64,000 nt of DNA from Bacteroidaceae bacterium (GTDB lineage Bacteria > Bacteroidota > Bacteroidia > Bacteroidales > Bacteroidaceae): NCBI GenBank assembly GCA_045588345.1, contig JAZNDZ010000005.1:1138-65137 (forward strand), read 5' to 3'. The translations under genes and the position numbers were made by a program. The first letter of the stretch is position 1. Each line of letters opens with the position of its first letter. This document shows, piece after piece, positions 37,109 to 63,167 of this stretch. Under the pieces are notes generated by a model, which ran no database searches, was not told the DNA's origin, and saw only the letters and a list, made by a program, of their open reading frames with translations.

Positions 37109-37171
37109 TTGCACAATATTAATCATTGCATATAATAGATTTGAGACACTCATCCATTGTATGTCTCGATT

Positions 37172-39190: not shown

Positions 39191-39197
39191 TCCACAA

Positions 39198-47653: not shown

Positions 47654-48415
47654 TTAGAAATTAGGATCAATCAACGATGAAAAATCTGCAAATTTCCCGT
47701 CAGTATGATTTATAAGCCTTTCTAGTGCTTCTGCAATTTGTTCGTTAAGATACCTTATATTCCAATCGCTGTTGTAATACTTTGTATAATAGTACATATT
47801 TTCTATCATACGTATATACCTACTTTTGAAGTCTTCACATGCAAATGGATTTTCCCTATCAAAGTCAGCTTGTGCTTTTTTTAATATTGTTTGAAATTCT
47901 TGATATGAGCTTTCATATTTTTTTAGTGGTTCCTGCACAATAGAATATTCCTGCTTGAAATTAGCCGAATATATTCTGTCAAAATAAGATATGGCCTCTT
48001 TAACAGCGACTCTATCGTATCTTTCGTACAACCACCTATTTGCAAGTTTAACCATACAAGTGTCAACAAACCCCATATTCCCTTGCAGTTTAGCAATTTC
48101 TTTCTCTTTATTGCAAATAACTAACATAAGGGAATCTTTTTGTCGATTTGCTCTTACAATCATTCTCATTGAGTCTTGCTTTGCACTACGTCTTATGGAA
48201 TCTATGAGTTTAATGTTTGCATTAGCAATGCTATCACGATGCGACAATTCACGACGGAGAGAATCTGCTACATACTTTATACTATCAACATTTTCAATCT
48301 TATCTCTTTCAATTTTCCCTTTAAAAAGGGGTTGTCTTTGTTTCTCCTGGGCTGTAACATTAATATTTACAAGACACAGGAAAAGCATAATTGTTACTAA
48401 TTCTTTTATTTTCAT
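47654..48415 (-). CDS. Hypothetical secreted coiled-coil protein (operon gene 9)
   Basis: 253 aa with a signal peptide MKIKELVTIMLFLCLVNINVTAQ and charged heptad-like sequence. It starts 5 nt after gene 8. Confidence 0.6.
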   Translation of the reverse strand: MKIKELVTIMLFLCLVNINVTAQEKQRQPLFKGKIERDKIENVDSIKYVADSLRRELSHRDSIANANIKLIDSIRRSAKQDSMRMIVRANRQKDSLMLVICNKEKEIAKLQGNMGFVDTCMVKLANRWLYERYDRVAVKEAISYFDRIYSANFKQEYSIVQEPLKKYESSYQEFQTILKKAQADFDRENPFACEDFKSRYIRMIENMYYYTKYYNSDWNIRYLNEQIAEALERLINHTDGKFADFSSLIDPNF

Positions 48416-48420
48416 TTCCT

Positions 48421-49689
48421 CTAATTATTTTCGTACGGTATCAAAACATATCCTCTATCTGTACCTTTGCTTACAGAACTATCCTTACGATATACAACAT
48501 AAATAGTATATGTTGACGACTTACTTAAGTTACTCAATGTCACGGTTTTGTAATTATACAAGTTTGTACCTGATGAAGGGCTTCCTTTAGTTGTAGTATA
48601 ATTTGAACTAGTTGTAGGTCTTGAGTCCTTACCAACCATAACATAATCATGATCAGACTCACCATTACTGCGGATATAGAATGTAAATGTATCATACCCC
48701 TTGATTGTAAAATACATTGTTGCTTCAGAATTATCTTTATTATAGTTGCTAGAAGATTGATAAGCTCTATATAAAGTACTTGGTGATATCATACTAGTCC
48801 ATTGGTAATTAGTAGTGATATTTATTTCCTTTCGAGTATAAAACTCTTTTGCATTTCTGTAATATTCAGCTGCTTTTTGCTTTAATGCATCAGTCGTTTT
48901 TGCTCCATATCCATATTTAGATTTATTATTATCGTACTCTTGAATTTTACTATTTGCAGCAGACATCAATGAGTTGAATGACTCTTCTGTCATGTTACGA
49001 TAATTTGCCATCTCATTGACTTTTGATTCAACTTGATAATAATGCGAATTACCGATATTAGACTTTACAGCTGCTAGTTTATTTGTCAAATCTGTACAAT
49101 TTGACAAAGGATCCATTGTCCTATACTTTTCAGCATTCTGTATCTTTGTATTGGCATCGCTCACAGAATAGAATGTAGAATATGTCGCTACTTTCTTTGC
49201 TTCCTTATAGTTGCTAATAATCTGTTCTATTCTGCGAAGATCAGTCTCATATGAACCCGCAACTGCACTAGTTTCCCCATAATCAACTTTTAATGTTCTT
49301 AGATGTGCTATACGCTCAAGCATAGCTTTATGGTCAGACTCACGCCAAGTTGATGCTCTGAACTTTGCATGACTTAATTTCGTGAAGATAGGCAGATATT
49401 TCTGTACTAATGCTTTCGTTTGATAATCAATTTCTTCGTCAGTCATAAAAGCCTCACTCTTATATAGAGCAAGTTTGTCAACAACAACATTATATATCGA
49501 ATCATTGAAAGCAGTGTTCTCCGTTTCAGAAAAACCGTTGATATTAGCTTCAAGAGAAGATTTATGCAAATTATTTACCGTAACATCCACAGGAGGTGCC
49601 ACAATCGTGGGATAGAAAGCAAGAATACCCGCAATTGCAAATGCAATAACGATTCCTAGAATAAGGATTTTTTTACCAGTATTTTTCAT
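48421..49689 (-). CDS. Hypothetical N-terminally membrane-anchored protein (operon gene 8)
   Basis: 422 aa with one N-terminal TM (ILILGIVIAFAIAGILAFYP), a helical middle and a beta-rich C-terminal ~100 aa. Its start overlaps the gene 7 stop (ATGA). Confidence 0.6.
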   Translation of the reverse strand: MKNTGKKILILGIVIAFAIAGILAFYPTIVAPPVDVTVNNLHKSSLEANINGFSETENTAFNDSIYNVVVDKLALYKSEAFMTDEEIDYQTKALVQKYLPIFTKLSHAKFRASTWRESDHKAMLERIAHLRTLKVDYGETSAVAGSYETDLRRIEQIISNYKEAKKVATYSTFYSVSDANTKIQNAEKYRTMDPLSNCTDLTNKLAAVKSNIGNSHYYQVESKVNEMANYRNMTEESFNSLMSAANSKIQEYDNNKSKYGYGAKTTDALKQKAAEYYRNAKEFYTRKEINITTNYQWTSMISPSTLYRAYQSSSNYNKDNSEATMYFTIKGYDTFTFYIRSNGESDHDYVMVGKDSRPTTSSNYTTTKGSPSSGTNLYNYKTVTLSNLSKSSTYTIYVVYRKDSSVSKGTDRGYVLIPYENN

Positions 49690-51035
49690 AACATATCTCC
49701 TTGTTTTGTTTTTGACTTCTGTTGCACTTTAGGTTGACTTTTCTTTGTCGTACTTGTTGTACTAGTTTTCTTAGTCTTATGAGTCGTTCCTGCATCCTCG
49801 AGCGCTTTTATATAACCTTTCTTATCGCCATCAGGCTTAATAGTTATATCGAAATCATTAGGATGTGTATTAAAGTTACCAGAGAAAGGCTTATGACGAT
49901 TTTTGGTTATCGCAGCTACCAGTTCTTTGAATATTGCGGATTTGCCAAGAACATTCTCATAGGCCAGTATATCATCAAAACGTCTCTCATTCATTGCATC
50001 CCACAAACCTTTTAGCGGTTCGTGTTTTTCCATCTCAGTTCTGTTCCAGACATTATTATGGTCTATATATGAGATCGCTGCATCTACTAATTTTTCATCA
50101 CTATTACTCTCTGAACCTTTTGGTGCATAATTGTAGTTGCGTTTTTCTAACTCCTTAATGCGACTCTTCAAATCAGCATTTTCTTTCGTTAATTTGCCAA
50201 CTTCTTGATTATCTGCCTTACCTCCAATAAAGTCGTTTAAAGCATAACCACCGCAGATACCGAGCAGTAGGACTATTATAGAACATATCAGGCATGTAAT
50301 CCAGAATTTGCGAGTGAATGGCTTGAATCGCAAGTAATTTTTATCATTGCGTGTAACATATCCATTTTCTGTTACATAGCCTTTCACAGGCGAATTTTTC
50401 ATTTTTCTATTGCCAGATATCTTAATTGGGTAATAGCCCTCTTCATTTTTGAGAGGCAATAGAAACTCATATGCATATGTCTCCTTTACTAATTTTAATT
50501 GTACAGGTTGTGTTAAATTCAAATGACCAGAAATTGGTTCAAAACCTTCAGCATGAATTTTTACCCAAACATTATTAAGAGTTGCTTCGCTAATGCGTAT
50601 ATCTTCGTTTTTACTAATACGCTGCTTCGCTACATATAAGTCGTAATCAGTTACACGTTGACTCCATTCATCAACTACTTTTATGTAATTATAGTTAAGC
50701 ACTCTAACATATTGATTAGGTGTTGGAACAGAATACTTTGCGCCAGGCGCAATTATACTCTTCGTATGGATAGGCATATACCCATCTCTTCTCCATTCAA
50801 TATCTATCGTACCTCCTTCAATGGCATAAATCTGTCCAACAAAAGGTCGCTCTCCAATATAGGGAACAAAAGAATCTATTTTCCCAGGTGATTTTACTAC
50901 TACCATCGAGTATACTTTCTGGTCTGACAAGTTATCTCCTTGAAGGCATTTTAACTTCGATGAATTATCTAATAGGAATACACTCTTATAACTCTTATAA
51001 TATGATTGACACATATCTTTTAGAAGCTCAGACAA
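49686..51035 (-). CDS. Hypothetical bitopic membrane protein (operon gene 7)
   Basis: 449 aa. Beta-rich N-terminal ~235 aa, a central TM (FWITCLICSIIVLLLGICGGYAL), a coiled-coil (LTKENADLKSRIKELEKR), a C-terminal globular part and a Lys/Thr/Ser-rich tail. Confidence 0.6.
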   Translation of the reverse strand: MSELLKDMCQSYYKSYKSVFLLDNSSKLKCLQGDNLSDQKVYSMVVVKSPGKIDSFVPYIGERPFVGQIYAIEGGTIDIEWRRDGYMPIHTKSIIAPGAKYSVPTPNQYVRVLNYNYIKVVDEWSQRVTDYDLYVAKQRISKNEDIRISEATLNNVWVKIHAEGFEPISGHLNLTQPVQLKLVKETYAYEFLLPLKNEEGYYPIKISGNRKMKNSPVKGYVTENGYVTRNDKNYLRFKPFTRKFWITCLICSIIVLLLGICGGYALNDFIGGKADNQEVGKLTKENADLKSRIKELEKRNYNYAPKGSESNSDEKLVDAAISYIDHNNVWNRTEMEKHEPLKGLWDAMNERRFDDILAYENVLGKSAIFKELVAAITKNRHKPFSGNFNTHPNDFDITIKPDGDKKGYIKALEDAGTTHKTKKTSTTSTTKKSQPKVQQKSKTKQGDML

Positions 51036-51053
51036 TGTGTACTTTGCTCCTTG

Positions 51054-51494
51054 TCAATAGTATCTGAATGCACACTTTTCGCCATTGCTTTTTGTAGTGA
51101 TTCTAGATGCAGGTGCTGATTCATATGTTTTCGAAAGAAGTTGGGTTAATCTTTCATCATTTCTTTCGTTAGCAAGAATCTCTTTTTTAACAGCATCTAC
51201 TATTTCAACAAGTTCCTTTCCTGCAATATTAATTGAAGCAGGAACATATATCCATGCGCTAATACAATCAGTGATACGACCCTCAATAAGCGAAGCTACA
51301 GTTAATATGTGTCCAGTATCAATGCTTGTAAGCATTAGTACTGCTGATGAACCATCCAAGTTATCAATGTTCTCAAGGTCTTTGCGGATATCCCAGACGT
51401 TCTTAGTCCATACCTGGTCTCCGTTTATTTCAAATAAATCTGTATAACCCTGATTTATACGAACTATCTTTAAACCTAATTTATTATTATCCAT
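51054..51494 (-). CDS. Small soluble protein, possibly Roadblock/MglB-like (operon gene 6)
   Basis: 146 aa, starting 6 nt after the GTPase gene. The stretch LDGSSAVLMLTSIDTGHILTVASL resembles the Roadblock/LC7 core pattern. This is a weak assignment made by eye only. Confidence 0.55.
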   Translation of the reverse strand: MDNNKLGLKIVRINQGYTDLFEINGDQVWTKNVWDIRKDLENIDNLDGSSAVLMLTSIDTGHILTVASLIEGRITDCISAWIYVPASINIAGKELVEIVDAVKKEILANERNDERLTQLLSKTYESAPASRITTKSNGEKCAFRYY

Positions 51495-51500
51495 AGTTTG

Positions 51501-53147
51501 TTACTTTTTTAATATGTCAAACAAGTTCTTAATCTTTCCAGGTTTGTATCCATAAGACCTCTTAATGAGTGTTCTAACAACCGTTGCTGCTGTATCTTCT
51601 TTGAATTTACAGTAGTTCTGGAAACATACTGTACCTAACGTAAATGGCTGGATCTCCACATTACCACCATTTATTTCATTGTCCTTACAAATCTTCTTCA
51701 AACCATTATAGAAGCCTTGATAGTTCTCAGAGATATAGTTTCTCAGTTTTTCCTGCAACTCCTTGCCCACAGCTTTTGCTTTATCAACCTTAGTAATAAG
51801 GAGATATAAGCCATCTGTGTCCTTTTTGAAAATTCCTGTTCTCTGGATATAAGCCACAGCTGCTTCTAGATAGATATTTTGAGGCAGACCTTCATACTCT
51901 CTGTCCTCAGCACCATACTCTATCACAAAGAAATGAATCTTTCGGTTATCAGTTCTGTTATCAATTAATATGTTGGTCAATGTCTTAAGAACATTCTGCT
52001 GCTCATCTGTCAAAGGCTCTCCGGCGTCTTGCTTATACATACATCTAACAAGCTCACCTGCGAGGTCAATACATGTAATTGGATGCTCTTTTCTGTCTTC
52101 ATCTTCGAGAATAAAACCCATTTCATAAGTAGATGATATTGCGGTACCCTCAGGTAGTGTACCAACAGCACCATTTGTCTTGAATAGATTAGCCAATCTA
52201 TTCATATATCCGTAGCCCTGACAATCTGGGTCACGTTGCATGCTTTTTGCAACTCTACCACTATTAGCAGAACTCAAAATTGCACCTAATGCACAACTTT
52301 TACCAGATGACGGAATACCCCAAAAGTAAACTTCTGTACATGGAGACTTTGTAATCTTTGTTATTGGTTCAGGAGTTTGGAATTTCTGAGGAGTGATATT
52401 AGACATCATGTGTGCAATGAAATCGCCATCAATCCCCGCTCTTGAAAAGTCTGATATAATTCCGTTCTCCCACAACAAATTTGCAACCGTACCGCTAATG
52501 AAGTTATTATCCTCTGAGATAGCAGAAAGAAGGTCATCTACACTAATTTTGCCCGTATTAATGCAGTTGACTATTCTATCATATATAGCCTTCTCTGGAT
52601 TATTAATTCTAGCATCTGTACGTATTGCCTTAATCTGTCTTGCAAGAGCTCGGATATCAACTCCTAGATATTGTTCTCTGCGCAACTCTCTTAAAAGGCG
52701 TGTGGCTTCTGCAAGGTAAGTACTATTAGGATGATTGTCTACAAAATTTTGCAGTTCAGTAATACTTCCTTTGTTAACGCTATCCCAAATCTCATCACTG
52801 GCGCCACTTTCCGCCAATTTCTGCAGTTCCTCAATTCTATCACGGGCAGAACTTCGATATTCGCCTTCTGGATACGAATCAAGGTAATTTTGGTATGCCT
52901 CTTCTGTATTAATGCGTTTGGCTTCTTCCCAGTCTTCCTCTTCGCAGTTCGCAAATTTCTCAGCGACCTGATCCTGTATAGACTTTTTTACAGGTGTACC
53001 TGCTTCTCGAGCCGCATCTCGAAACTCTTCAAAACTCTTTATTCCGGCCTGTTTCAAGGCCTTTACTAGGTCATCGATGTTGTTGCTGTACTCATCGATA
53101 TTATCAAATATAGTATCTAAATCAATCATATTATTGGAATTTTTCAA
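51501..53147 (-). CDS. P-loop GTPase with Ras-like G1/G3/G4 motifs and a helical N-terminal extension (operon gene 5)
   Basis: 548 aa. G1 GIPSSGKS, G3 CIDLAGE and G4 ITKVDK appear in canonical order and spacing. The N-terminal ~270 aa are helical, with two similar segments (YQNYLDSYPEGEYRSSARDRI and LQNFVDNHPNSTYLAEATRLL). Confidence 0.7.
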   Translation of the reverse strand: MKNSNNMIDLDTIFDNIDEYSNNIDDLVKALKQAGIKSFEEFRDAAREAGTPVKKSIQDQVAEKFANCEEEDWEEAKRINTEEAYQNYLDSYPEGEYRSSARDRIEELQKLAESGASDEIWDSVNKGSITELQNFVDNHPNSTYLAEATRLLRELRREQYLGVDIRALARQIKAIRTDARINNPEKAIYDRIVNCINTGKISVDDLLSAISEDNNFISGTVANLLWENGIISDFSRAGIDGDFIAHMMSNITPQKFQTPEPITKITKSPCTEVYFWGIPSSGKSCALGAILSSANSGRVAKSMQRDPDCQGYGYMNRLANLFKTNGAVGTLPEGTAISSTYEMGFILEDEDRKEHPITCIDLAGELVRCMYKQDAGEPLTDEQQNVLKTLTNILIDNRTDNRKIHFFVIEYGAEDREYEGLPQNIYLEAAVAYIQRTGIFKKDTDGLYLLITKVDKAKAVGKELQEKLRNYISENYQGFYNGLKKICKDNEINGGNVEIQPFTLGTVCFQNYCKFKEDTAATVVRTLIKRSYGYKPGKIKNLFDILKK

Positions 53148-54152
53148 TTACATAGTGAATGAACCGTAATCGCCTTCGTTTGAAGAGGAATCATCATCCA
53201 TACTAAATGTCATATCATCTTCAGGGCGGTCAATTTTGCTAGTTTTCTTAGACTTTTTGCGTTTGGGTGTATATGAGTCACCTTCAGAGCCAATGAGTCT
53301 AAATGTACTTTTGGTATTTCTACTTTGAATGATGTACGGAAACAAAAGCAATATATATAGTAGGACTCCAATACCAATTGCAAGCATTGATGGGGTACCC
53401 ATTGTTGTGTACACAGAGCGTAGATTATTTAGGTTCTCCTTAGCCGTTGTTACACTTGGATCAGAGGATGAGAATGGTTCGACTCCATTGGGTTCGTCTG
53501 ACATAATTTTACCAGAGAATTCACTTAGCGAGTTATTCCAATTTTCAATAGCGCCTTCAATCTTTTTGATGTTGCCAATCATAAAGACATTCCATACAGT
53601 CGCCCCTGATGCATTATCAATCCACTGAACCGCTGATTCTTTCAAAGCATTATAATTATCAGCAATCAATTGCAGTCTAAGAGCCTCTACTTCGTTAGTT
53701 CTATGAACAGTCTTTGTTTTATTTTGAGCCAATTTCTTGTCATACTCCTTTATTCTATTATTTGCGTAGACCTCATAAGATTCAAACATACCCTTTGTTG
53801 TCTTTATAGACTCTGAGAAAGTCTTTTCTACTTGACTTCGGTTATCAAAAACTGTCCAAAAGTGAGCATATGGGACCATTACCGCAATAAAGGACAAAGG
53901 TGCAGAGAAGAAAAGAATACGCTCAAAAACGAACTTTCTGCAAAATTTCTCATCAGCCCCTTTCAAAATTTGAGGTATGATGAAAAATATAATCAGTACA
54001 AGATTGATTATCAACACGCCCAATCCCGCATACAGGAAATCTCCATCAGTCAAATATGTGATTCCCATAAATGAGACATAACTGATAAATATCAGTGCAA
54101 TAAATGCAATGATATGTCCCCATGAAAATTTTAATGTTTCATTAATTGCCAT
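53148..54152 (-). CDS. Multipass membrane protein (operon gene 4)
   Basis: 334 aa. Three N-terminal TM helices, a ~150-aa loop, a fourth TM (MLAIGIGVLLYILLLFPYII) and a charged tail. Its stop abuts the gene 5 start. Confidence 0.65.
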   Translation of the reverse strand: MAINETLKFSWGHIIAFIALIFISYVSFMGITYLTDGDFLYAGLGVLIINLVLIIFFIIPQILKGADEKFCRKFVFERILFFSAPLSFIAVMVPYAHFWTVFDNRSQVEKTFSESIKTTKGMFESYEVYANNRIKEYDKKLAQNKTKTVHRTNEVEALRLQLIADNYNALKESAVQWIDNASGATVWNVFMIGNIKKIEGAIENWNNSLSEFSGKIMSDEPNGVEPFSSSDPSVTTAKENLNNLRSVYTTMGTPSMLAIGIGVLLYILLLFPYIIQSRNTKSTFRLIGSEGDSYTPKRKKSKKTSKIDRPEDDMTFSMDDDSSSNEGDYGSFTM

Positions 54153-54161
54153 ATATCGTCC

Positions 54162-57140
54162 TTATTTATTTTCAGGTAATAATTTTTCAAGTTCACTTAT
54201 CTTTCTCTTATAGGATTCTATTAGTTTTCTAATAGAATCGTAATCTGTTCCATCATTCTCATCTTCAGATGTTGGCGGAGTTGTTTTACCATTATCATTT
54301 CCCGGATCCTTAGGACTTGGTTTGTTTCCAGGATTATGTACATCTTGGCCTGGCGTTTTACCAGTATCGCCAGGATTATCTCCATCTACATTGCCACCTG
54401 TTTCTCCTGAATTCTCATTGACTGGTGATTCTCTATCGATTGGGTTATTACCAGAACCTCCATCCACTACATTAGGATTTGTAATTTCGTTATTGGCATT
54501 ACCATTTGTGTCTGGGAGTTCTGGTATCACACCTGTTTTCAACGCTATTAGAGCATCGTCAACTTGAATCATAGGTGGCATATAATCAGATGCTCGCTCA
54601 CCAGTTGCCTGTAAAATATGAAGTACTTCTGTCACCGAGATATCTTGGTTTAAACTCTTCATTAATGCTACCGTACCTGCAACTATTGGAGCAGCCATAC
54701 TTGTACCATCAAATACGGCATATTCATTGACGGGTATAGAACTATAAATGCCCTTACCTGGAGCAGAGATGTTAGAACCTCTACCATAATTGGTGAAGTC
54801 TGTACCTTTTATTTGCCTATCAACAGCAGCGACATTTACGGTGAAATTCGTTCGATTCTCAGGAGGAATGTTTGCGAGTATATTGTCATTACCTACTGCA
54901 AAAACGATTATCACATTATGCTCATTTGCGACATTAATAATACGTTTCCACACACGCTCTTCGTTTTTGAATTGAGTTTTAGCAATATAATCCTGGTCTG
55001 GGAGAGGTAGTATATCTAGTCCTCTGAAATTCGGACCAATAGATACATTTACAACATTCGCTCCATTGTGAATGGCGTACATTATTCCGCTTGTTACTGA
55101 CGAAAATGTACACATACCATTGTCAAATACCTGTATTGGCATTAGTTTACATTTAGGCGCAACTCCAGATACGCCTTTGTCAAACATCTTATCAGAGCCA
55201 ACTGGCAATCCAGCTACGTGTGTACCATGTCCCTGGCCAACACTTAATCTATTATCCTGAGTAAACACATTGTAAGGGCTTACAATTCTTCCTTTAAGGA
55301 TATCATGTGTTGCATCAATACCATCATCAACAACTGCTACGGTGATATTTGGGCTTCCCTTAGTAATTTCCCAACCTTCTTCTACATCAATTGCATCAAG
55401 ATGCCAGCCTATATTTGCTGTATCCGTACTAATATCGCCAACAATGGTAAAAATTGACTCATCAACTATGAAAAACTCATAGTTTGGAAGCTGTGCATTC
55501 AAACCCTCTCTAATAGCGTCTCGCATATTTTCAGAAATAAGAATCTGTATCATTGTCACATTCTTATCAAAGCCAATGACTTGACACTCATTTTCTGAAT
55601 ACATCTTAGAAAGGTCTGATATAAACTGTTCAAGGTCTACATTCGCGTCTTCAAAGTATATATTTAGCCTATTTGCAACAATATCTGGCGTCCCAGGATT
55701 TGAAACAATAGGAGGCTCTTTGCCGTCATCCCCTACGATAGGTGCTACGACATTATTATTAGGCAACTTGCCATCATCACCAACAATACCCTTGACAGGT
55801 CCATTGTTATCAATAACACGCCCGTCATTTGTCTCAATTACAGGTGTAGGCTCTACTGGGCCACCGCTTTCACATGATCTTAAAAGCCATGACAATAAGA
55901 ACAGCAAAAGTAATAGGAGTAACAACCACAATAGCCACTTTAAACATCCTTTACCTGTAAACCAAGCCCATAAGCGCTTATACCATGGTATGTCCTTTTC
56001 ATATTGAGCTGTAAATGTTGTATCACCATTCAAAGTGTAATCAATCGGTGACTTGTCCCAACCTATAAACTTATAACCTCGTTTAGCCTTAATTGCCGGG
56101 GTATTATCATTATTGAATATTGAACCATAAGGCAGTGTAAAGCAATCTGTACCCTCAATTGAACCGTGTTCACCAGCGACAAATTGACATGTTACATTAT
56201 CTCTATTGAAGATAGCAGTGAAAGTTGCATCCTCATAGATAGCTCCCAAATCGGGCTGAATATCCCAGCCAACGAAAGAATAACCGTTATTAGGTACAGC
56301 CGATGGAATTTGCATTACATCTAGATATGTCCCCTTCTCTATGGAGCATTCAGTTGTTCCACTCAATGAGCCGCCAACACCTGCTAAGAAGGTAATATGC
56401 ACATTTTCTTTTTCTGCGGGAACATCATCTTCAATAGGTGCCTCATCATATAGTGCTGTAAAAGAAAGAAGTCCATTAACCTTCATACCCAATGGATTTG
56501 GATCCCATCCCTTAAATACATATCCCTTCTTAGGAGTTACGGTAGGCAGATCAATATTTGATAATGTGGCACCATCAGGGCGACTAACAACCCCAGCTAA
56601 TTTATCTGTAAGAGTGCCATTTTCTCCTACAATAAAACGTACTTTGTGATTGCTTTGAATCTTTAAATCATGTATTACTGCACCCTTCACGACATGTTTG
56701 TGAGAGTCAGGCGACATACCCCAAGCAACTACTACTACTTTTTCATCATAGCAGAACATAAAGTCCTCATCAATATACTTGAGGGCACCTGTTAGAATCT
56801 GCTTATCCTCACCTGTCAGATTTTTACGTACTTTTTCATATGCTGCAATTGTTTTTTCTTTTATCGCAGCATACTTAGCCTTATCAACATCTGATAAATC
56901 ACTATATGCACACGGTGTATGATTCCACTCGCGCACATACCATAATATCTGATCCTCATCTGAATATATAGGATGAGCTAGAAAGTCTCTATATTGAGGC
57001 TCTACATTCTTCTCAACTACTGAATATACGCTGTCAAATCTCTTGTACAGCGGATCGCGACCGATTCCTTGGAAATCGGTAAAATCAGTAACCTCTGTGT
57101 AACAGAGTTTTCTCTTGCCATATAGAGTATGTTCTGCCAT
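54162..57140 (-). CDS. Membrane-anchored subtilisin-like (S8) serine protease with an N-terminal domain and three Listeria-Bacteroides-type repeats (operon gene 3)
   Basis: 992 aa with no signal peptide. Repeats GYVFKGWD, GYSFVGWD and GYKFIGWD; TM WLLWLLLLLLLLFLLSWLL; S8 triad contexts VAVVDDGID, GHGTHVAG and GTSMAAPIVAG; then a low-complexity N/G/P-rich tail ending in a coiled coil. Confidence 0.8.
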   Translation of the reverse strand: MAEHTLYGKRKLCYTEVTDFTDFQGIGRDPLYKRFDSVYSVVEKNVEPQYRDFLAHPIYSDEDQILWYVREWNHTPCAYSDLSDVDKAKYAAIKEKTIAAYEKVRKNLTGEDKQILTGALKYIDEDFMFCYDEKVVVVAWGMSPDSHKHVVKGAVIHDLKIQSNHKVRFIVGENGTLTDKLAGVVSRPDGATLSNIDLPTVTPKKGYVFKGWDPNPLGMKVNGLLSFTALYDEAPIEDDVPAEKENVHITFLAGVGGSLSGTTECSIEKGTYLDVMQIPSAVPNNGYSFVGWDIQPDLGAIYEDATFTAIFNRDNVTCQFVAGEHGSIEGTDCFTLPYGSIFNNDNTPAIKAKRGYKFIGWDKSPIDYTLNGDTTFTAQYEKDIPWYKRLWAWFTGKGCLKWLLWLLLLLLLLFLLSWLLRSCESGGPVEPTPVIETNDGRVIDNNGPVKGIVGDDGKLPNNNVVAPIVGDDGKEPPIVSNPGTPDIVANRLNIYFEDANVDLEQFISDLSKMYSENECQVIGFDKNVTMIQILISENMRDAIREGLNAQLPNYEFFIVDESIFTIVGDISTDTANIGWHLDAIDVEEGWEITKGSPNITVAVVDDGIDATHDILKGRIVSPYNVFTQDNRLSVGQGHGTHVAGLPVGSDKMFDKGVSGVAPKCKLMPIQVFDNGMCTFSSVTSGIMYAIHNGANVVNVSIGPNFRGLDILPLPDQDYIAKTQFKNEERVWKRIINVANEHNVIIVFAVGNDNILANIPPENRTNFTVNVAAVDRQIKGTDFTNYGRGSNISAPGKGIYSSIPVNEYAVFDGTSMAAPIVAGTVALMKSLNQDISVTEVLHILQATGERASDYMPPMIQVDDALIALKTGVIPELPDTNGNANNEITNPNVVDGGSGNNPIDRESPVNENSGETGGNVDGDNPGDTGKTPGQDVHNPGNKPSPKDPGNDNGKTTPPTSEDENDGTDYDSIRKLIESYKRKISELEKLLPENK

Positions 57141-57144
57141 ATAC

Positions 57145-59988
57145 TTAATTATTTATATATAGGGTACTGCTAGTGTCAATTATGTCTTTAATAGCTGCAT
57201 TTGCTACTGAATCAACATGGGAGATATCACTGGCGAATAGTAATCCTATCGTAATAAAGTTCTCCCAACGCTGGTAACTATCCCAGAATGGCAACTTTTT
57301 TAGTGTCGCTAAATCAATGCGAGAATTGTTCATCTCATCTCTTGATTGATCAAGAGCCGAAAGGACTTCTAATAGAGGCTGAGGCTTTATATTCGAACTT
57401 GATGCTGCCGGGGACAAATCAATCTCCAAATGGCATGATTTTGCCTTTTGTGCAATATTTGCCATATCCTTTTCTGACATATATTCTCGACCTACTGTGC
57501 TAACAAAGTTATTTAATGTCAAAGAGGCATAATCAGCTATTGCATTAGGGAGTCCATTTCTATCAAAAACATCGTAATATCTATTTATCTTATCCGAAAT
57601 AGCTCGCTTAACACCAAGTTTGTTCAATAATGTTAGAATCATGAATGCTATCTCATCTGCATGAGGAAGCACATCGCCCATATTTTTTACTTGTTCGTTA
57701 ATATGGTTATTCCAATACTCAATGATGTGTTTAGCGATAACATCGGGGACAGTGGCTAGTAATTCACTTTCATCAGATATTACATCCTCTAATGTGACAC
57801 CCATTTCGGCAAAGAACGATTTTAATTCACTCTCTTCCTTATTGTATCTCTTGCAGAGTTTCTGGATATTAGTAGACTTATCATCGTTAATATCAATCTC
57901 ACAGAATGCACGAATCATCTTAATAGATGACACGCTCTGCGGTTCCTCAATATGACGAACTATGATGTCGTATGCAATGGTTCGAATGTCTGCAGACGAT
58001 ACCATCAAATCATCAATGATACGACCAAATCTTTCAGGTTTTTCACCAAAAGCAAATTCAGTCCTTAGTTTAATGTCTCCTGTAATTTGGCGTATTCTCA
58101 CATTGTTTTCTTCCTTGTCATCAGACTCATAGTAAACGCTTAACCTATTGATGATTTCATCGCGTATTTCTATAAGTTGCTGCAAGTATCGTTCGTGTCT
58201 TGCGTCATCAAGCACTTCGGCTATGGCATCAAGATTCCTAATGATAGCCTTAGAACCATCATTGTTAATTGTTGCTACATCATCCCAAGCTTGTTGAGGT
58301 TTAGCAAAATGCTTTTTAACAAAGGGATTTGCTAGGAAACTTTCTCTCAAATCGTCAAAATATCCCGGGTATTCATCGAATATATGGACACTACTCTCGG
58401 TAGTTCCCTTTTGCTCATTATATCCGTCAAACACTTGGTTTTTAGAGGACCAATAAAAGTCTCGAAGCAAATATACATTTTGGAAGCAAGGAGATGTAAA
58501 TGAGCCTCCTAGAGACACCCATTCATCAAGCCACTTCTCGGGCTCAATAATTTTTGGAATTGTAGTATTGAACCTTGCCCAGTGGTTGTCTAACTTTGAG
58601 GCTGACTCAGGCGTATCGTTCTTCGTTTTTTCAAGGTCAATGTTGAACTTTGTACAAATCAAAAACAGAGGTGCAATACCATTTGTCCTTGATAGTACAT
58701 TGGCTCTAACATCAGGTGTTTCACCGATATTATCCTCAATCCAATTATGTATAGATGCTCCAATTGTAGGTTCAGTCTTTTGGTCATTATGATGACAGAA
58801 GAGTACTGAACTAATCTTCAAAGAACGAGAGTACTTATTAAATAAATAGGCGACTTTTCCTCTTCGAAGAATCGTGGGCAGAACTTCTCCCAACTGCTGT
58901 TCCTTGATTTTTTCTCGGGATCGTGCACCCGGAAAATCCAATAAATCAATCTTCTTCAGGAATTTTCTTTCTGTTGCGATATCCTCTGGCAATACAAAAG
59001 TTAATTCTCCGATTAAAGCAGAGAGGTATGCTTTACTAAAATCTTTTGCAATAAGTTCGCCTTCACGATTATATACGTCTGTATAAAGGACATCATCATT
59101 AGACTCTTTATGAATACCACATACCGAATCAAGCCAATCAATCTTAAGCAATGTACCTTTATCTCTTAGTACTGCGTCGAACGGCACATACACTTCAGTT
59201 AAAAAGTCTAATTTTTTGTACTCATTGATAAGGGTACTGAACAATCTGTTTAACTCTGGATTATTATTCCATATAAGGCCAAAAATATTAACCCAGTTAT
59301 CGCTTGCTACATAACTAATAATAGGGGCAATAATTTTGCAAAAATTTGACTTGCAAATATTTGCAGCATTATTTCCAATGATATCATTGAGATAATCACA
59401 AATATCTCTTATGTCATCCTCAGTAATAATATTGTGAGCTGGCGACTTCCCACTCCACAATTCTTTCATTTGAGACAGAGAATTATCTATATCAGTGTTG
59501 AGCATAACACTATCCGTGTTAATCTTAACATCGTTATAATAAGAGTCTGCCAATAAAAGAATGATATCGACTACTGACAAGTTTGTGATTTTCACATAGT
59601 CAGCCATCTTCTTATTACTTTGCCTAATTGTAAAGCGAGTTATAACACCAGTAGATTCCTGTTTGGTATTATTGCCTCCGCTAGGATTAATCTCATCAAT
59701 AAAACTATAGCGAACGCCATTATTCTCAATAACAAATGGAGCATCTGGCGTTGACAGAAGGCTACTCATCAGATAGGATTTTCCGACCTGACTCTCACCA
59801 TATGCTGCAGCAGAACAGTTCTCCGAGAGAGCTTCTCCAATCCTTCTCAGCTTTCTGCGATAATTCTTAAACACTTCCCTTGGGAATGAGTCTTTCTCGT
59901 ATTTATCTGCCCAAGCAACTGATTGCTTGATAACTTCGAGGTTAGTAATTATATCTCTTGTCATATATGCCAAATTCAATTTATTCAA
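57145..59988 (-). CDS. SrfC-like large P-loop GTPase (dynamin-like) (operon gene 2)
   Basis: 947 aa. Walker A/G1 GESQVGKS (residues 64-71), candidate G2 GVITRFT, G3 LLDFPGARSRE (DxPG as in dynamins), candidate G4 CTKFNID, and a long helical C-terminal half. Confidence 0.65.
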   Translation of the reverse strand: MNKLNLAYMTRDIITNLEVIKQSVAWADKYEKDSFPREVFKNYRRKLRRIGEALSENCSAAAYGESQVGKSYLMSSLLSTPDAPFVIENNGVRYSFIDEINPSGGNNTKQESTGVITRFTIRQSNKKMADYVKITNLSVVDIILLLADSYYNDVKINTDSVMLNTDIDNSLSQMKELWSGKSPAHNIITEDDIRDICDYLNDIIGNNAANICKSNFCKIIAPIISYVASDNWVNIFGLIWNNNPELNRLFSTLINEYKKLDFLTEVYVPFDAVLRDKGTLLKIDWLDSVCGIHKESNDDVLYTDVYNREGELIAKDFSKAYLSALIGELTFVLPEDIATERKFLKKIDLLDFPGARSREKIKEQQLGEVLPTILRRGKVAYLFNKYSRSLKISSVLFCHHNDQKTEPTIGASIHNWIEDNIGETPDVRANVLSRTNGIAPLFLICTKFNIDLEKTKNDTPESASKLDNHWARFNTTIPKIIEPEKWLDEWVSLGGSFTSPCFQNVYLLRDFYWSSKNQVFDGYNEQKGTTESSVHIFDEYPGYFDDLRESFLANPFVKKHFAKPQQAWDDVATINNDGSKAIIRNLDAIAEVLDDARHERYLQQLIEIRDEIINRLSVYYESDDKEENNVRIRQITGDIKLRTEFAFGEKPERFGRIIDDLMVSSADIRTIAYDIIVRHIEEPQSVSSIKMIRAFCEIDINDDKSTNIQKLCKRYNKEESELKSFFAEMGVTLEDVISDESELLATVPDVIAKHIIEYWNNHINEQVKNMGDVLPHADEIAFMILTLLNKLGVKRAISDKINRYYDVFDRNGLPNAIADYASLTLNNFVSTVGREYMSEKDMANIAQKAKSCHLEIDLSPAASSSNIKPQPLLEVLSALDQSRDEMNNSRIDLATLKKLPFWDSYQRWENFITIGLLFASDISHVDSVANAAIKDIIDTSSTLYINN

Positions 59989-59991
59989 CCA

Positions 59992-62900
59992 TTAAAAATC
60001 AAATGCTCCAGAATCCAACCAATATTGATCATCAACACCCAAACTCTGAATGTGAATCTCAATACTGCTATCAGACAATTCAACTCCATTTCTATCTTTG
60101 ATAGAGCTAATAGTTAGATTCTCCTTATCTTCAGGATCACGGTCTATCGTAATCTTAAATGGCATTCGTTTTTTGAAACCCTCTACCTCGTCATTCGCCA
60201 TTGACTGAACAGCTGCATCTGAAGGATTATACCCGTTATCCAATGCTTTATTACGAATTTTGTTTACCAATTTCATATAGTTAAAGTCAATGGAATACAG
60301 CGCCCTTGACGGATAACTGGTCAAGCCGAATTGACGAACATTTAAGATATCAGGGATTCGGCTTACAGTCAGTTCTCCCTGCAACTTATCAGGAGTAATT
60401 AAGTACTCAATAGGCTGGCCATCTCTTGATGCTTCAATATAGTTGACCGTAGACTTCAGATTGCTCTTGAGTTTCTCCAAATTAATGGAGAACTTATCAA
60501 GATTAGAGTACTCGGAAGCATAATGGCCAATTACACCTCCCATAGCCACTATGGTCTTTGGATTGGTGATATATCCAGTGTTTTGACAGAAAGGGTACCA
60601 ATCACCAACATAGTAGTTGTTTAGAGTTATAAGTCGATTTGGCGATACAGGATAGTACTTTAAGAAGATGTTTCGTATTGCTGGTAACGATGACGGTCTT
60701 CCTGACAGTAAAATCACATCACAGGAATAAGCAAAGAACATTGTGGCAATCTTCTTCAAAAGTGGTTCAAACTCCTTTGAAATAATATCGGCTACGAACT
60801 CCTTATTGTACTCCCAAGTAAGAGATGTGATGTCTATTCCCATCCTTCTCTTAAAGTCGTCTATTACGCGTTGGTTAGGTTGGTTAACCTTAAATACATC
60901 GTCATACTTAACTATACAACTACAGCTATCATTTGATGCCAACTCCAAGAAATATGTCATCAACGGGATAGAATACTGTATATTGAAATCGCGCCTTGCA
61001 ATGCGATCGGCAATAGTTTGACCATTATAATCTGGGCCAAAGAAATTCTTAATCTTTTGCCTATACTGTATTGGGTCAAGACTACGAAGAGCCTTGCGGA
61101 AAGCACTATGCTTTTCGTCAAGCAACATCACATTCTTGACTAAGGCCTTGAGCATATCATCGCCTGCAAAATAGAAACTATCGTAAAACTTTGGATCCGG
61201 GGTAATGGTAGTTAAGTCACCTTTTGTGAAAGAGTATTCGCTAATCATCAAATCGGATGTTCCTGCTCCAATATCCAATGAACCAACTGTAAGTGTAGGT
61301 TGCTGATTACCATCCACAACCTTTCCGTACAAATTAAAGAATTCGCTACATACGCCTTTGTATTTATGGCCTACCTCGCCATAAATATACACGAGTTGAG
61401 CGCAAGTCGCTTCATCATAATACCACGAGCCATCATTATCCTTCATTGAACGTACAGCTGGTATAATATCGATGGCAGGAGCTCCATTGCCGTATATAAA
61501 TCTGCCATACAATGTAACAGCATCTTTAGCACATTTCACAAGGGCCTCTCTCTCAATCTTGGACATTGCGGTCGGGCAAGTAATAATTATTCGCTTTATC
61601 TTGCGTGGAACTGTTTTCCAGCCAACATCAATTCGATATGGCTCACTATTAATCTGGCTATTAGCCTGCGAGAGCATCTCCAAGAAGGCAAAGGTCATAA
61701 GGCTCCTTCTAGAGTAATGTGAAGAGCGCCCACCATCAGTACCTGTCACATCGATTCGTCCATCGCTCATAAGATTGGAACTAATGCCTCGAATATTAAG
61801 TATGTGATTAGACTCTTCACCTGGAAGAACTAAAAATTCCCACTCCTTTTTGCTTGGCTTATTATCCCACAAGTATCTTTTAGGACTTGAGTATGTTGAC
61901 AATGTCTCCTCTTCCCATGCTGAACTACAAGCGCGATGTATAAGGGCGCTTGCTTCCTGACCAAGTCTGATAAAGCTAGGATACACAAATTGCTTGCTAT
62001 CATTAATGCCAAAAGAGCCGAAATCAACTCTTCTAAAGGCTAAACGCATGTCGAAAGGTTCGTTGTAAGAACGGATACGAACTTTGTCATCTTTTTCCTG
62101 TAACAAATCCGTGTAATCAATTAAACTTAAAGGCTTAACTTGATTAAAATTCGAATTATCTTCAATCAATAATGCAGTAGTTCTAGAATTGCCAATATCT
62201 ATTACCATATCAACATTTCTAACTTCGACATCTTGGTCTTTGTACAACTTTATAGCTGGGAATAATTTGTTTTGAGCCAAATAATTCACCAAGAAAATGT
62301 AAGATGCAATGTAAGACATCTTGTGAGTATTTGCGCCCTTGATTTGCGACACACTGCTGAGTGTAGGATGAACCAATTTGAAAATATACTCATCAATATA
62401 GCTCCAATTCTCCTTTGGGGAACAATAGTCCATCAAGAAAAACTCGTTGTCGCATAACGCAAAATTCATCTCAGAGCAATACTGGTCAGGGAATACCGGA
62501 AACTCATTATATTCATCAGACGAATAACCAGCTCTTGTATCAAACGCGAGAATAACATCGTATTCAAGTTCGGTTTTACCTTCACTTCTAGGCACAAACT
62601 TAACTCGAGACCAGTTCATTGGGCTAAACTTAAAGCGCTTCTCTGTTCTTTTGAAAAAGTATGGAATAGGAATCCATTTATTCTCAAAATTCTTTAATGC
62701 GTTATGTTTGTCAGAGAAAGTCAACTTATATAGCTCTCCTCTGACTCCGTTGCACATTTCATCATCAATCTTGAGAGAATTGATTCCGTCATTTCGCAAT
62801 TCTATAGGATCATATTCGATTGTTGGGTCGTTCAGATAGCCTCCATCGAATAATTCGTGCTTGTCGTAAAACAAAACATTATCATCGGTAGCAACTTCAT

Positions 62901-63042
62901 GGGCAAGGTCCAATCTCCATTGCCCATTACTTGTGTCATACCATTCTCGGAACCACATTTTAAATTTATCCTGAGTATTCAATTTAAGTCTGAATGTCAG
63001 CAATTGAATACCTGAATTCGCTATCAATGAGAAGCTGTCCAT
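59992..63042 (-). CDS. SrfB-like protein with an actin/Hsp70 (ASKHA) ATPase core (operon gene 1)
   Basis: 1016 aa. The N-terminus SLIANSGIQLLTF resembles the SrfB family start as I recall it. ASKHA motifs occur in order: VIDIGNSRTTALL (phosphate 1), ITCPTAMS, DEATCA, LDIGAGTSDL (phosphate 2) and ILLSGRPSSLPAI (adenosine). Confidence 0.7.
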   Translation of the reverse strand: MDSFSLIANSGIQLLTFRLKLNTQDKFKMWFREWYDTSNGQWRLDLAHEVATDDNVLFYDKHELFDGGYLNDPTIEYDPIELRNDGINSLKIDDEMCNGVRGELYKLTFSDKHNALKNFENKWIPIPYFFKRTEKRFKFSPMNWSRVKFVPRSEGKTELEYDVILAFDTRAGYSSDEYNEFPVFPDQYCSEMNFALCDNEFFLMDYCSPKENWSYIDEYIFKLVHPTLSSVSQIKGANTHKMSYIASYIFLVNYLAQNKLFPAIKLYKDQDVEVRNVDMVIDIGNSRTTALLIEDNSNFNQVKPLSLIDYTDLLQEKDDKVRIRSYNEPFDMRLAFRRVDFGSFGINDSKQFVYPSFIRLGQEASALIHRACSSAWEEETLSTYSSPKRYLWDNKPSKKEWEFLVLPGEESNHILNIRGISSNLMSDGRIDVTGTDGGRSSHYSRRSLMTFAFLEMLSQANSQINSEPYRIDVGWKTVPRKIKRIIITCPTAMSKIEREALVKCAKDAVTLYGRFIYGNGAPAIDIIPAVRSMKDNDGSWYYDEATCAQLVYIYGEVGHKYKGVCSEFFNLYGKVVDGNQQPTLTVGSLDIGAGTSDLMISEYSFTKGDLTTITPDPKFYDSFYFAGDDMLKALVKNVMLLDEKHSAFRKALRSLDPIQYRQKIKNFFGPDYNGQTIADRIARRDFNIQYSIPLMTYFLELASNDSCSCIVKYDDVFKVNQPNQRVIDDFKRRMGIDITSLTWEYNKEFVADIISKEFEPLLKKIATMFFAYSCDVILLSGRPSSLPAIRNIFLKYYPVSPNRLITLNNYYVGDWYPFCQNTGYITNPKTIVAMGGVIGHYASEYSNLDKFSINLEKLKSNLKSTVNYIEASRDGQPIEYLITPDKLQGELTVSRIPDILNVRQFGLTSYPSRALYSIDFNYMKLVNKIRNKALDNGYNPSDAAVQSMANDEVEGFKKRMPFKITIDRDPEDKENLTISSIKDRNGVELSDSSIEIHIQSLGVDDQYWLDSGAFDF

Positions 63043-63140
63043 ATTTTTTACTTTTAACTAAACTTCAATTGTTGTGATTTTTTTTGCATCTCCTAACAGG
63101 AGATAGATTATTTTACCTAACAAATCGTAAGTTTATATGC

Positions 63141-63167
63141 AAAAAAGGAGCTCGCTCCCGAACTCCT
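63141..63167 (-). terminator. Terminator after the integrase gene, upstream of the operon
   Basis: The minus strand reads GGAGTTCG-GGAG-CGAGCTCC (one mismatch) followed by TTTTTT, 24 nt after the integrase stop. Confidence 0.55.

Follow-up and report, generated by a model that had tools for sequence, protein, structure and literature searches.

The 64,000-nt window analysed here (contig JAZNDZ010000005.1 of assembly GCA_045588345.1, a Bacteroidaceae bacterium) carries a cassette of eight genes that includes the SrfB-SrfC pair of the proteobacterial Srf clusters. The cassette is real and strongly conserved, and its eight genes are inherited together in a constant order. It is best read as an inner-membrane-spanning complex, a self-contained and mobile Bacteroidota version of the Srf system. 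The original prediction, made from the letters of the window, had described the region as a candidate undescribed envelope-spanning system of nine genes. The cassette as a whole indeed has no literature match: no description of it was found in the searchable full-text literature, Bacteroidota are not mentioned in the Srf literature that was read (PMC6950479), and the cassette is apparently undescribed. Its SrfB-SrfC core, however, is already known and annotated in RefSeq (Runella), so the cassette is a Bacteroidota variant of the Srf clusters and not a system without relatives.

Co-inheritance and gene content of the cassette

An SrfC alignment was scanned against one genome per species (185,579 species), which gave 124 relatives; 80 loci were kept and searched with tblastn and iterated hidden Markov models (HMMs) of all cassette proteins, and 64 of them had enough flanking sequence to be informative. 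The genes for SrfB, SrfC, the S8 protease, the four-transmembrane-segment protein, the GTPase, and the gene 7 product were present in 64/64 informative loci, all of which were colinear. By HMM, gene 6 was detected in 59 and gene 8 in 42 of the 64, with many contigs ending before gene 8. In six distant loci without a gene 6 HMM match, the positional equivalents all encoded bitopic proteins, which matched the gene 6 profile in hhalign (probability 98.9%, E 2e-17). The SrfC identity among the loci ranged from 94% down to 33%. The region had been predicted to be one unit, with neighbourhood conservation across Bacteroidota proposed as a check; the co-inheritance is borne out, since the SrfB, SrfC, S8, and GTPase genes co-occur in every informative locus.

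The hosts belong to Bacteroidales, Chitinophagales, Flavobacteriales, and Cytophagales, together with one metagenome-assembled genome (MAG) of Fibrobacterota. Named distant carriers are Niastella, Flavivirga, a Chitinispirillia (Fibrobacterota) MAG, and a Runella plasmid, and the cultured carriers include B. stercorirosoris DSM 26884, P. paurosaccharolyticus JCM 15092, and Prevotella lacticifex JCM 34664; in cultured Xylanibacter ruminicola KHT3, the contig stops inside the S8 gene. The cassette is abundant in metagenomes from gut and rumen, as single 90%-identity clusters contain as many as 2,956 sequences; SrfC homologues occur in ~2,300 contigs. The homologues of the gene 5 GTPase formed 379 50%-identity clusters at E<=1e-30. 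Bacteroidales-like cassettes were also observed in MAG bins labelled as Dialister, Bacilli, Waltera, Clostridiales, Flexilinea, Clostridia, Bifidobacteriaceae, and Oscillibacter (L010, L012, L013, L026, L058, L068, L069, and L077), with SrfC identities of 51-66% (43% in L077). Such bins are most simply explained as mis-binned mobile contigs and not as true presence in those phyla.

On the minus strand of the window, exactly nine open reading frames (ORFs) were listed between 63042 and 47654, separated as called by 3, 4, 9, 0, 6, 18, -4, and 5 nt; the ORF scan thus reproduced the frames and gaps of the original prediction. All of them represent real gene sequence, with homologues of each in dozens of other contigs. 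The count of nine genes was nevertheless not borne out. The ORFs of 146 aa (51054-51494) and 449 aa (49686-51035, TTG start) share one frame, and their sole separator is the in-frame TGA at 51054-51056. The equivalent codon is GGA in L081, GGT in L002, and GGC in L090, all encoding Gly. In L081, whose SrfC is 99% identical to that of the window, gene 6 is a single 602-aa ORF, and its equivalent in related loci is mostly one ORF of roughly 500-690 aa. Judged by these relatives, gene 6 of the window carries a G-to-T nonsense mutation or a sequencing error. Since the two ORFs are one gene cut by this TGA, the canonical unit has eight genes. The separate cytoplasmic 146-aa protein and the TTG-initiated 449-aa protein that had been predicted are artefacts, the former being the N-terminal part of the bitopic gene 6 protein. 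The TTG starts of the SrfC and GTPase ORFs are probably wrong as well: SrfC homologues have 935-939 aa and start at M9 of the window ORF, and GTPase homologues start at M7 (542 aa). On the basis of these homologue lengths, M9 and M7 were taken as the starts, and the two gaps become 27 nt (before SrfC) and 18 nt (before the GTPase). The coordinates are listed in Table 1.

Table 1. Cassette genes, neighbouring features of the window, and a gene recurring beside related cassettes
Feature	Position	Strand	Basis
Gene 1, SrfB family, 1016 aa	59992..63042	-	PF07520 E 2.3e-218, profile positions 11-991 of 992
Gene 2, SrfC-family dynamin-like GTPase (predicted), 939 aa from M9	57145..59964	-	PF10139 (Virul_Fac) E 3.6e-101; ORF reaches TTG at 59988
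Gene 3, bitopic membrane subtilase (predicted), 992 aa	54162..57140	-	Peptidase_S8 E 2e-42; Flg_new
Gene 4, four-transmembrane-segment protein (predicted), 334 aa	53148..54152	-	Hydropathy
Gene 5, cytoplasmic GTPase (predicted), 542 aa from M7	51501..53129	-	TRAFAC fold model, G motifs; ORF reaches TTG at 53147
Gene 6, bitopic protein (predicted), ~602 aa, interrupted by TGA 51054-51056	49686..51494	-	Hydropathy, ORFs of relatives
Gene 7, N-terminally anchored periplasmic protein (predicted), 422 aa	48421..49689	-	One N-terminal transmembrane segment, N-in
Gene 8, secreted periplasmic protein (predicted), 253 aa, predicted helical, last cassette gene	47654..48415	-	Hydrophobic N-terminus
Tyrosine recombinase/integrase, C-terminal 244 aa only, gene runs past window end	63191..63925	-	Pfam Phage_integrase, Phage_int_SAM_5
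Weak terminator-like hairpin after integrase stop	63146..63159	-	GGGAGC..GCTCC, 5-bp stem, then TTTTTT; consensus match only
ATPase_2/DUF234 ATPase, convergent neighbour outside cassette	45971..47383	+	PADLOC PDC-S27 E 2e-200; Pfam ATPase_2, AAA_14, DUF234
Tetratricopeptide repeat (TPR)/retropepsin gene, related loci	L081 16894-17182; L090 15731-17791; L091-L094 17536-19596; L095-L098 1-179; L020 4150-6165; L071 22186-22797		

Two further genes were observed at related loci. In 38 of these (e.g., L009 9681-10376, L015 9894-10562, and L030 10091-11053), genes 4 and 5 are separated by an additional gene of ~210-320 aa that encodes a truncated paralogue of the GTPase that retains the first ~60 residues and part of the G domain; the subfamily of the window is without it. 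A protein of ~690 aa with TPR and retropepsin-like domains (Asp_protease_2, gag-asp_proteas) recurs beside the cassette and is absent from the window. Its gene lies sometimes downstream (in places past a 681-aa Peptidase_M48 gene) and sometimes immediately upstream of SrfB, and it may be an optional ninth component or co-travelling cargo.

Predicted architecture of the complex

Motif conservation was assessed in 73-78 homologues per protein (33-94% identity). An exact-sequence look-up found no identical database records for the SrfB and SrfC of the window, and a 99%-identical relative (P0001) was used. SrfB has no transmembrane segment by hydropathy and was assigned to the cytoplasm. All 75 homologues share its motifs DxGNSxT, DIGAGT(S/T)D, and SGRP without change. 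The hhalign comparison with the nucleotide-binding domain of E. coli DnaK was colinear over 359 columns with a weak score (E 0.006, probability 6%), and in this weak alignment the phosphate-1, connect-1, and phosphate-2 motifs of the two proteins are in register. Because of the invariant motifs and the register of the alignment, an Hsp70/actin-type (ASKHA) nucleotide-binding core with large insertions is a reasonable but not conclusive assignment for SrfB.

SrfC also lacks transmembrane segments (hydropathy), and its G1 (GESQVGKS) and G3 (DFPGARS) motifs are invariant in the homologue alignment. With its AlphaFold2 model (pLDDT 86.8, pTM 0.82), Foldseek retrieved dynamin-superfamily proteins throughout PDB ranks 1-25, the top matches being SynDLP (E 1e-8), BDLP (2.5e-5), Fzo1, the Campylobacter DLP1/2 pair, LeoA, Drp1, and mitofusins; the TM-scores against dynamin structures were low (0.15-0.23), as expected for flexible multi-domain proteins. 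The model points to a large GTPase domain with a helical stalk (neck-trunk) and to membership in the dynamin superfamily.

The product of gene 5, likewise without a transmembrane segment (hydropathy), has G1 GxPSSGK(S/T), G3 DxxGE, and G4 (T/S)KxD motifs that are invariant in 73 homologues. Its AlphaFold2 model (pLDDT 87.3) combines an all-helical TPR/BamD-like N-terminal domain of ~250 aa with a C-terminal TRAFAC GTPase domain, for which Nog1, EF-Tu, EngB/YsxC, Roco, YcjX, and SR-beta were nearest in Foldseek (E 1e-4 to 1e-3). No Pfam family covers the protein, and a lenient sub-domain scan gave only weak matches to YfiO/TPR-like families and DO-GTPase1 (E 0.11). The protein had been called Ras-like; a broad TRAFAC GTPase fold with invariant G motifs stands, but a specific Ras-family affiliation does not, as Nog1, EF-Tu, EngB, Roco, and YcjX are its nearest structures. 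PDB searches with the three nucleoside triphosphatases (NTPases) as single sequences gave no meaningful matches. The predicted pairing of three NTPase classes with an extracytoplasmic S8 protease agrees with the Pfam matches, the invariant motifs, the SrfC and GTPase models, and the SrfB-DnaK alignment.

The topology of the remaining proteins was assigned from hydropathy and the positive-inside rule, and the membrane and secreted assignments of the original prediction are in accordance with both. In the subtilase (gene 3), residues 1-401 are predicted to be cytoplasmic and include three InlB-B/Flg_new-type repeats. They are followed by a single transmembrane segment (402-420; 4 vs 1 positive charges, hence N-in), an S8 domain (~598-847) predicted to face the periplasm, a low-complexity tail, and a coiled coil. 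The D/H/S triad of the S8 domain is invariant in 75 homologues. The domain gave its highest scores with subtilases linked to maturation and secretion, among them mycosin and PatA; the best NCBIfam model was mycosin at 132.4 bits, under the TIGR03921 cut-off of 278.75. The gene 4 protein is predicted to have a periplasmic loop of ~160 aa between transmembrane segments 3 and 4 and a Lys/Ser-rich cytoplasmic tail. For the gene 6 protein, the predicted layout is ~390 aa in the cytoplasm, one transmembrane segment, a coiled coil, and a periplasmic domain of ~190 aa; a lenient Pfam scan returned coiled-coil families only. Gene 7, whose start overlaps the upstream stop (ATGA), encodes a helical core with a Ser/Thr/Asn/Tyr-rich C-terminal part limited to the close subfamily, and most of its homologues have ~285-310 aa. 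The gene 8 product has a hydrophobic N-terminus with a VTA-QE cleavage-like site, consistent with a signal peptide. No family match was found for genes 4-8 in Pfam, NCBIfam, and PADLOC, and profile searches of the PDB with genes 6 and 7 gave no meaningful matches.

Conservation follows a gradient: the cytoplasmic NTPases change least, and the membrane and periplasmic parts most. Among the closest loci, median identity was 87% for SrfB, 84% for SrfC, 75% for the GTPase, 65% for the S8 protease, 64% for the four-transmembrane-segment protein, and 37-62% for genes 6-8. Fast divergence of the outer parts would be expected of an outer face in contact with fast-evolving partners.

From these assignments, we infer an assembly that crosses the inner membrane and faces the periplasm. 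Its cytoplasmic face would comprise the three conserved NTPases with intact catalytic motifs (SrfB, SrfC, and the TRAFAC GTPase). The S8 protein, the four-transmembrane-segment protein, and the bitopic protein of ~600 aa would lie in the membrane with sizeable domains predicted on both sides, and the subtilase with its intact triad and two helical proteins would form the periplasmic face. No outer-membrane barrel or type IX secretion system (T9SS) signal was recognised in the cassette sequences, although no search was aimed at them. As no outer-membrane component is apparent, the cassette most likely acts on the envelope of its producer. The membrane proteins could provide a docking platform for SrfB and SrfC, as has been reported for SrfA in Proteobacteria. 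Such a platform might link what happens in the periplasm to the cytoplasmic membrane, which the dynamin-like SrfC would remodel, seal, or cut with energy from NTP. The periplasmic event might be sensing, proteolysis by the subtilase, or the cleavage of periplasmic subunits, which evolve fast, and the small GTPase and the Hsp70-like ATPase might act as switch and clamp. Complex formation, the subunit contacts, and the order of events in this scheme are all inferred.

Mobility and genomic context

The cassette lies on a low-GC island. The G+C fraction is 0.34-0.40 from ~46 kb to the window end vs 0.44-0.53 in the rest of the window, and ordinary chromosomal genes (MatE, PrmA, FMN reductase, and nitroreductase) are found to the left of the island. 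A tyrosine integrase gene is located directly upstream of the cassette on the same strand. The AT-rich, integrase-linked island of the original prediction is therefore recognisable both in the GC profile and in the adjoining gene.

Among 146 upstream-flank proteins from 53 loci, the tyrosine integrase was the only recurrent family (12 loci). An integrase of ~400-440 aa in the same position and orientation was found at 12-14 of the 53 related loci, including the distant L076 and L078, and a same-strand integrase is immediately upstream even at 34% SrfC identity. A transposase takes its place in L081; other upstream neighbours are transposases, VapE, a BT4734-like primase, RhuM, and unrelated genes. 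Cassettes with 83-94% identity occur in MAGs assigned to Paludibacteraceae, Alistipes, and Bacteroidaceae. The cassette is horizontally mobile between gut Bacteroidota.

Defence-related genes adjoin some copies. The Runella sp. SP2 copy (L086) resides on the 93-kb plasmid pSP2_1 (NZ_CP031031.1 43394-78543), which is predicted to be non-mobilizable; directly upstream of the cassette, this plasmid carries a complete BREX-1 system (brxB, brxC, pglZ, and brxL) together with a restriction-modification/AAA module. Its RefSeq labels are virulence factor SrfB, SrfC family, and S8 family serine peptidase, followed by seven hypothetical proteins. ATPase_2, AAA_23, and ADP-ribosylglycohydrolase genes are located near the cassette in L082 and L090, and ATPase_2 genes were likewise found near it in L082 and L021. 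In the window, an ATPase gene converging on the far end of the cassette had been predicted and was confirmed; its product matches PDC-S27, a candidate defence family of PADLOC, almost end to end and belongs to the same low-GC island.

The terminator hairpin that had been noticed after the integrase is present, though weak, with a stem of 5 bp and a T run. The 148-nt spacer between the integrase and srfB presumably holds the cassette promoter. Within this spacer, a perfect 10-nt inverted repeat (TTTTTTGCAT / ATGCAAAAAA) encloses 47 nt at 63080-63146, and the enclosed stretch holds a second small palindrome, ATCTCCTGTTAGGAGAT. A typical invertible promoter would require a longer element; the repeat may instead serve as an operator or belong to a terminator. 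A phase-variable (invertible) promoter controlled by the integrase was considered and dropped, as no credible inverted repeats flank the spacer; the inverted repeats found there were only the 10-nt pair and a 31-nt pair at 74% match. Direct and inverted repeats over 45-64 kb showed no att-like or array structure, and only one end of the island falls within the window. An Rfam scan of the window gave no matches. Elsewhere in the window, at 35780-40040 (+), three consecutive ORFs (442, 677, and 280 aa) without a Pfam match follow a 1270-aa GH20 and MucBP protein and coincide with a second GC dip (0.40-0.42).

Possible roles and comparison with known systems

A role in envelope-level conflict or defence, carried as cargo of integrative elements, is tentatively preferred for the cassette; its genomic context gives this role only moderate support. 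The cassette would protect its host from phage entry or membrane-damaging attack, or act by abortive infection, in a manner analogous in principle to dynamin-based protection by DynA, IniA, and Eleos and to envelope sensing by Zorya and Kiwa. This role is favoured because of the mobility and patchiness of the cassette, its occasional defence neighbours, its fast-evolving outer face, and the precedents for protection by dynamins.

Several observations weigh against it. SrfB, SrfC, and the GTPase match no PADLOC model, and no SrfC relatives were found among the IMG/VR viral contigs scanned. PADLOC families recur in only a few of the 146 upstream-flank proteins, most upstream flanks being heterogeneous mobile-element or housekeeping genes and not defence genes, and therefore the proximity to defence genes may only reflect mobile hot spots. 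The G4 motif of SrfC is TKFN instead of TKxD, so guanine specificity is not assured, and the window copy, with its nonsense codon in gene 6, may be inactive. The published phenotypes of proteobacterial Srf proteins are swarming or surfactant loss and cytotoxic lysates, not immunity (PMC4219756, PMC11370582, PMC6950479). Salmonella srfABC is under FlhDC control and its mutants lose swarming only, with the srfB deletion described as surfactant-defective (PMC4219756, PMC11370582), and the cytotoxic SrfABC lysates of Xenorhabdus stockiae were obtained from over-expressing E. coli (PMC6950479).

These phenotypes are closer to the main rival of defence, a membrane-export or vesiculation machine, which we regard as rather unlikely. 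SrfB-SrfC would here drive the release of vesicles, of lipid or surfactant, of lipoproteins, or of a processed protein or peptide, with the subtilase maturing the cargo, possibly the products of genes 7 and 8. Besides the swarming loss and surfactant defect (PMC4219756, PMC11370582) and the cytotoxic X. stockiae lysates (PMC6950479), it is consistent with the Lol-like ABC (ATP-binding cassette) exporter and the secreted von Willebrand factor A (vWA) and formylglycine-generating enzyme (FGE) proteins of the proteobacterial cluster. The best scores of the S8 domain against maturation- and secretion-linked subtilases (mycosin and PatA) point the same way, as does the BDLP/LeoA-like fold of SrfC, LeoABC-type dynamins being known to aid toxin release. 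However, swarming does not occur in Bacteroidales, the lysates that proved cytotoxic were prepared from over-expressing E. coli, and the accessory genes of the Bacteroidota and Proteobacteria clusters are unrelated. Pfam, NCBIfam, and PADLOC scans detected no toxin domain or variable effector-immunity pair in the cassette, its gene content is constant across loci and not polymorphic, and no outer-membrane or T9SS component was detected, with no search aimed at these.

Accessory envelope biogenesis or maintenance appears improbable. Here, a scaffold resembling the divisome, PilMNO, or magnetosome systems, made up of an actin-like ATPase, bitopic partners, and a processing protease, would construct or mend a structure of the surface or membrane and have no conflict role. 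The cassette formally resembles PilM/N/O, FtsA with its bitopic partners, and protease-containing membrane-organelle systems; dynamin-like proteins are known in membrane repair and septation, and the predicted topology places all parts at the inner membrane and periplasm of the producer. Nevertheless, the distribution is patchy and transfer-driven (124 matches among 185,579 species representatives), the cassette lies on a low-GC island, and no linked pilin, fimbrial, or polysaccharide genes were found in the flanks of the loci inspected.

Very little probability was assigned to a function that serves the mobile element itself, the cassette being the main cargo of a family of small integrase-bearing elements and promoting their maintenance or spread, e.g., by exclusion of competing elements, addiction, or vesicle-mediated DNA transfer. 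The same-strand integrase directly upstream in 12-14 loci, some at 34% SrfC identity, the spread of the cassette across families, and flanks rich in VapE, BT4734-like primase, RhuM, and transposases would fit it, but approximately three quarters of the loci have no adjacent integrase, Pfam, NCBIfam, and PADLOC scans revealed no DNA-processing, relaxase, or coupling-protein domains in the cassette, and the Runella plasmid is predicted to be non-mobilizable. Chance juxtaposition of unrelated genes, or of several independent transcription units without a common function, is effectively refuted because synteny is kept in 64/64 loci down to 33% SrfC identity, with gaps of -4 to 27 nt, and the promoter-like hexamers inside the region, which could speak for it, are fewer than in shuffled sequence (54 vs 71).

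If an envelope-level immunity or vesiculation machine were proven, Bacteroidota ecology would gain a new mechanism, and a function could be given to the Srf proteins. Direct tests of the cassette are feasible, given its conserved catalytic residues, clear predicted topology, and cultured carriers.

The original prediction found no named defence, secretion, or toxin system that fits the gene set, and the comparisons agree with this: there were only weak PADLOC subtilase/IetS matches, the mycosin score was under its cut-off, and SrfA was absent. With dynamin-like proteins (BDLP, SynDLP, DynA, IniA, Campylobacter DLP1/2, and LeoABC), SrfC shares the predicted large-GTPase and helical-stalk fold, and the second GTPase encoded near SrfC resembles the arrangement of Eleos and other pairs of such proteins. 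In contrast, neither SrfC nor the GTPase matched the PADLOC LeoA/LeoBC models at E<=0.01, SrfC has TKFN as G4, and the dynamin-like systems are without the Hsp70-like ATPase, the subtilase, and the five membrane or periplasmic proteins of the cassette. The cassette is similar to NTPase-centred conflict systems (DO-GTPase; PMC7159879) in having several NTPases and a protease on mobile, sporadic loci; the term SrfC does not occur in that paper (PMC7159879). It differs in the dominance of membrane and periplasmic components, and the match of gene 5 to DO-GTPase is faint and not significant (E 0.11). The S8 protease shows a weak partial match to IetS of IetAS (E 6e-8 over ~80 residues), whereas the NCBIfam IteS score was 28 bits against a cut-off of 900, no IetA-type ATPase is present in the cassette, and the protease is predicted to be membrane-anchored with a periplasmic catalytic domain. 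As with the mycosin (MycP) of the type VII secretion system, a membrane-anchored extracytoplasmic subtilase would belong to a multi-protein membrane machine. MycP has a signal peptide and a C-terminal anchor; the S8 protein of the cassette has the opposite predicted anchor topology, a large cytoplasmic N-domain being followed by the transmembrane segment, and genes for EccB, C, D, E, or WXG100 proteins are absent from the cassette.

Since 2000, SrfABC of Proteobacteria has carried the label virulence factor with no mechanism attached to it; its SrfA is bitopic and combines a kinase-like N-domain with a lipocalin-like C-domain. The cassette has in common with it full-length SrfB (PF07520) and SrfC (PF10139), adjacent and in the same order. 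SrfC is located directly downstream of SrfB in all loci, as in SrfABC, and SrfB is ~27% identical to enterobacterial plasmid copies. An Srf cluster of Klebsiella pneumoniae (L087; plasmid NZ_CP138739.1 138341-164698) comprises at least ten same-strand genes, encoding a tellurite-resistance-domain protein, SrfA, SrfB, SrfC, a bitopic 339-aa protein, a secreted vWA protein, an ABC ATPase, an ABC permease, SUMF1/FGE, and a small secreted protein. Clusters of this type were found on 114 Klebsiella plasmids (PLSDB), and the label "tripartite toxin" may understate the enterobacterial Srf system. The accessory set of vWA, Lol-like ABC, and SUMF1/FGE proteins is known from Klebsiella, Haemophilus, and Xenorhabdus clusters and was present in L087; neither the window nor the Bacteroidota loci that were inspected one gene at a time have it. 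The cassette also has no SrfA (no NCBIfam or Pfam SrfA match), and the gene upstream of its SrfB is the integrase. A hidden SrfA among genes 3, 4, and 6 was considered and rejected, as HMM comparisons with the Klebsiella cluster gave only ~8-10 bits, consistent with similarity between transmembrane segments. Instead, the cassette encodes a bitopic S8 protease, a four-transmembrane-segment protein, a third GTPase, a bitopic protein of ~600 aa, and two periplasmic proteins, which are not detectably related to the proteobacterial Srf partners; only SrfB and SrfC are shared.

In X. stockiae, SrfA, SrfB, and SrfC co-precipitate as a complex (PMC6950479), and in the model of a preprint, SrfA is a bitopic platform that binds SrfB and then SrfC, with vesicle export proposed (bioRxiv 10.64898/2026.09.18.752743). 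The portable SrfB-SrfC core, which has a completely different and larger set of membrane and periplasmic partners in Bacteroidota, suggests a motor of general use, built from an ATPase and a dynamin, that attaches to bitopic membrane adaptors. It is possible, though doubtful, that SrfB-SrfC is the universal cytoplasmic motor of an unrecognised class of envelope-spanning machines with lineage-specific periplasmic modules, and that its version in Bacteroidota represents a new, widespread, and mobile system of gut bacteria for envelope immunity or vesiculation. The module would consist of SrfA, the vWA protein, the Lol-like ABC transporter, and the FGE enzyme in Proteobacteria, and of the subtilase, three membrane proteins, the switch GTPase, and two periplasmic proteins in Bacteroidota, where membrane remodelling would be triggered by the protease and driven by the dynamin and the Hsp70-like ATPase. 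Both types of clusters surround SrfB-SrfC with bitopic inner-membrane proteins and secreted periplasmic proteins.

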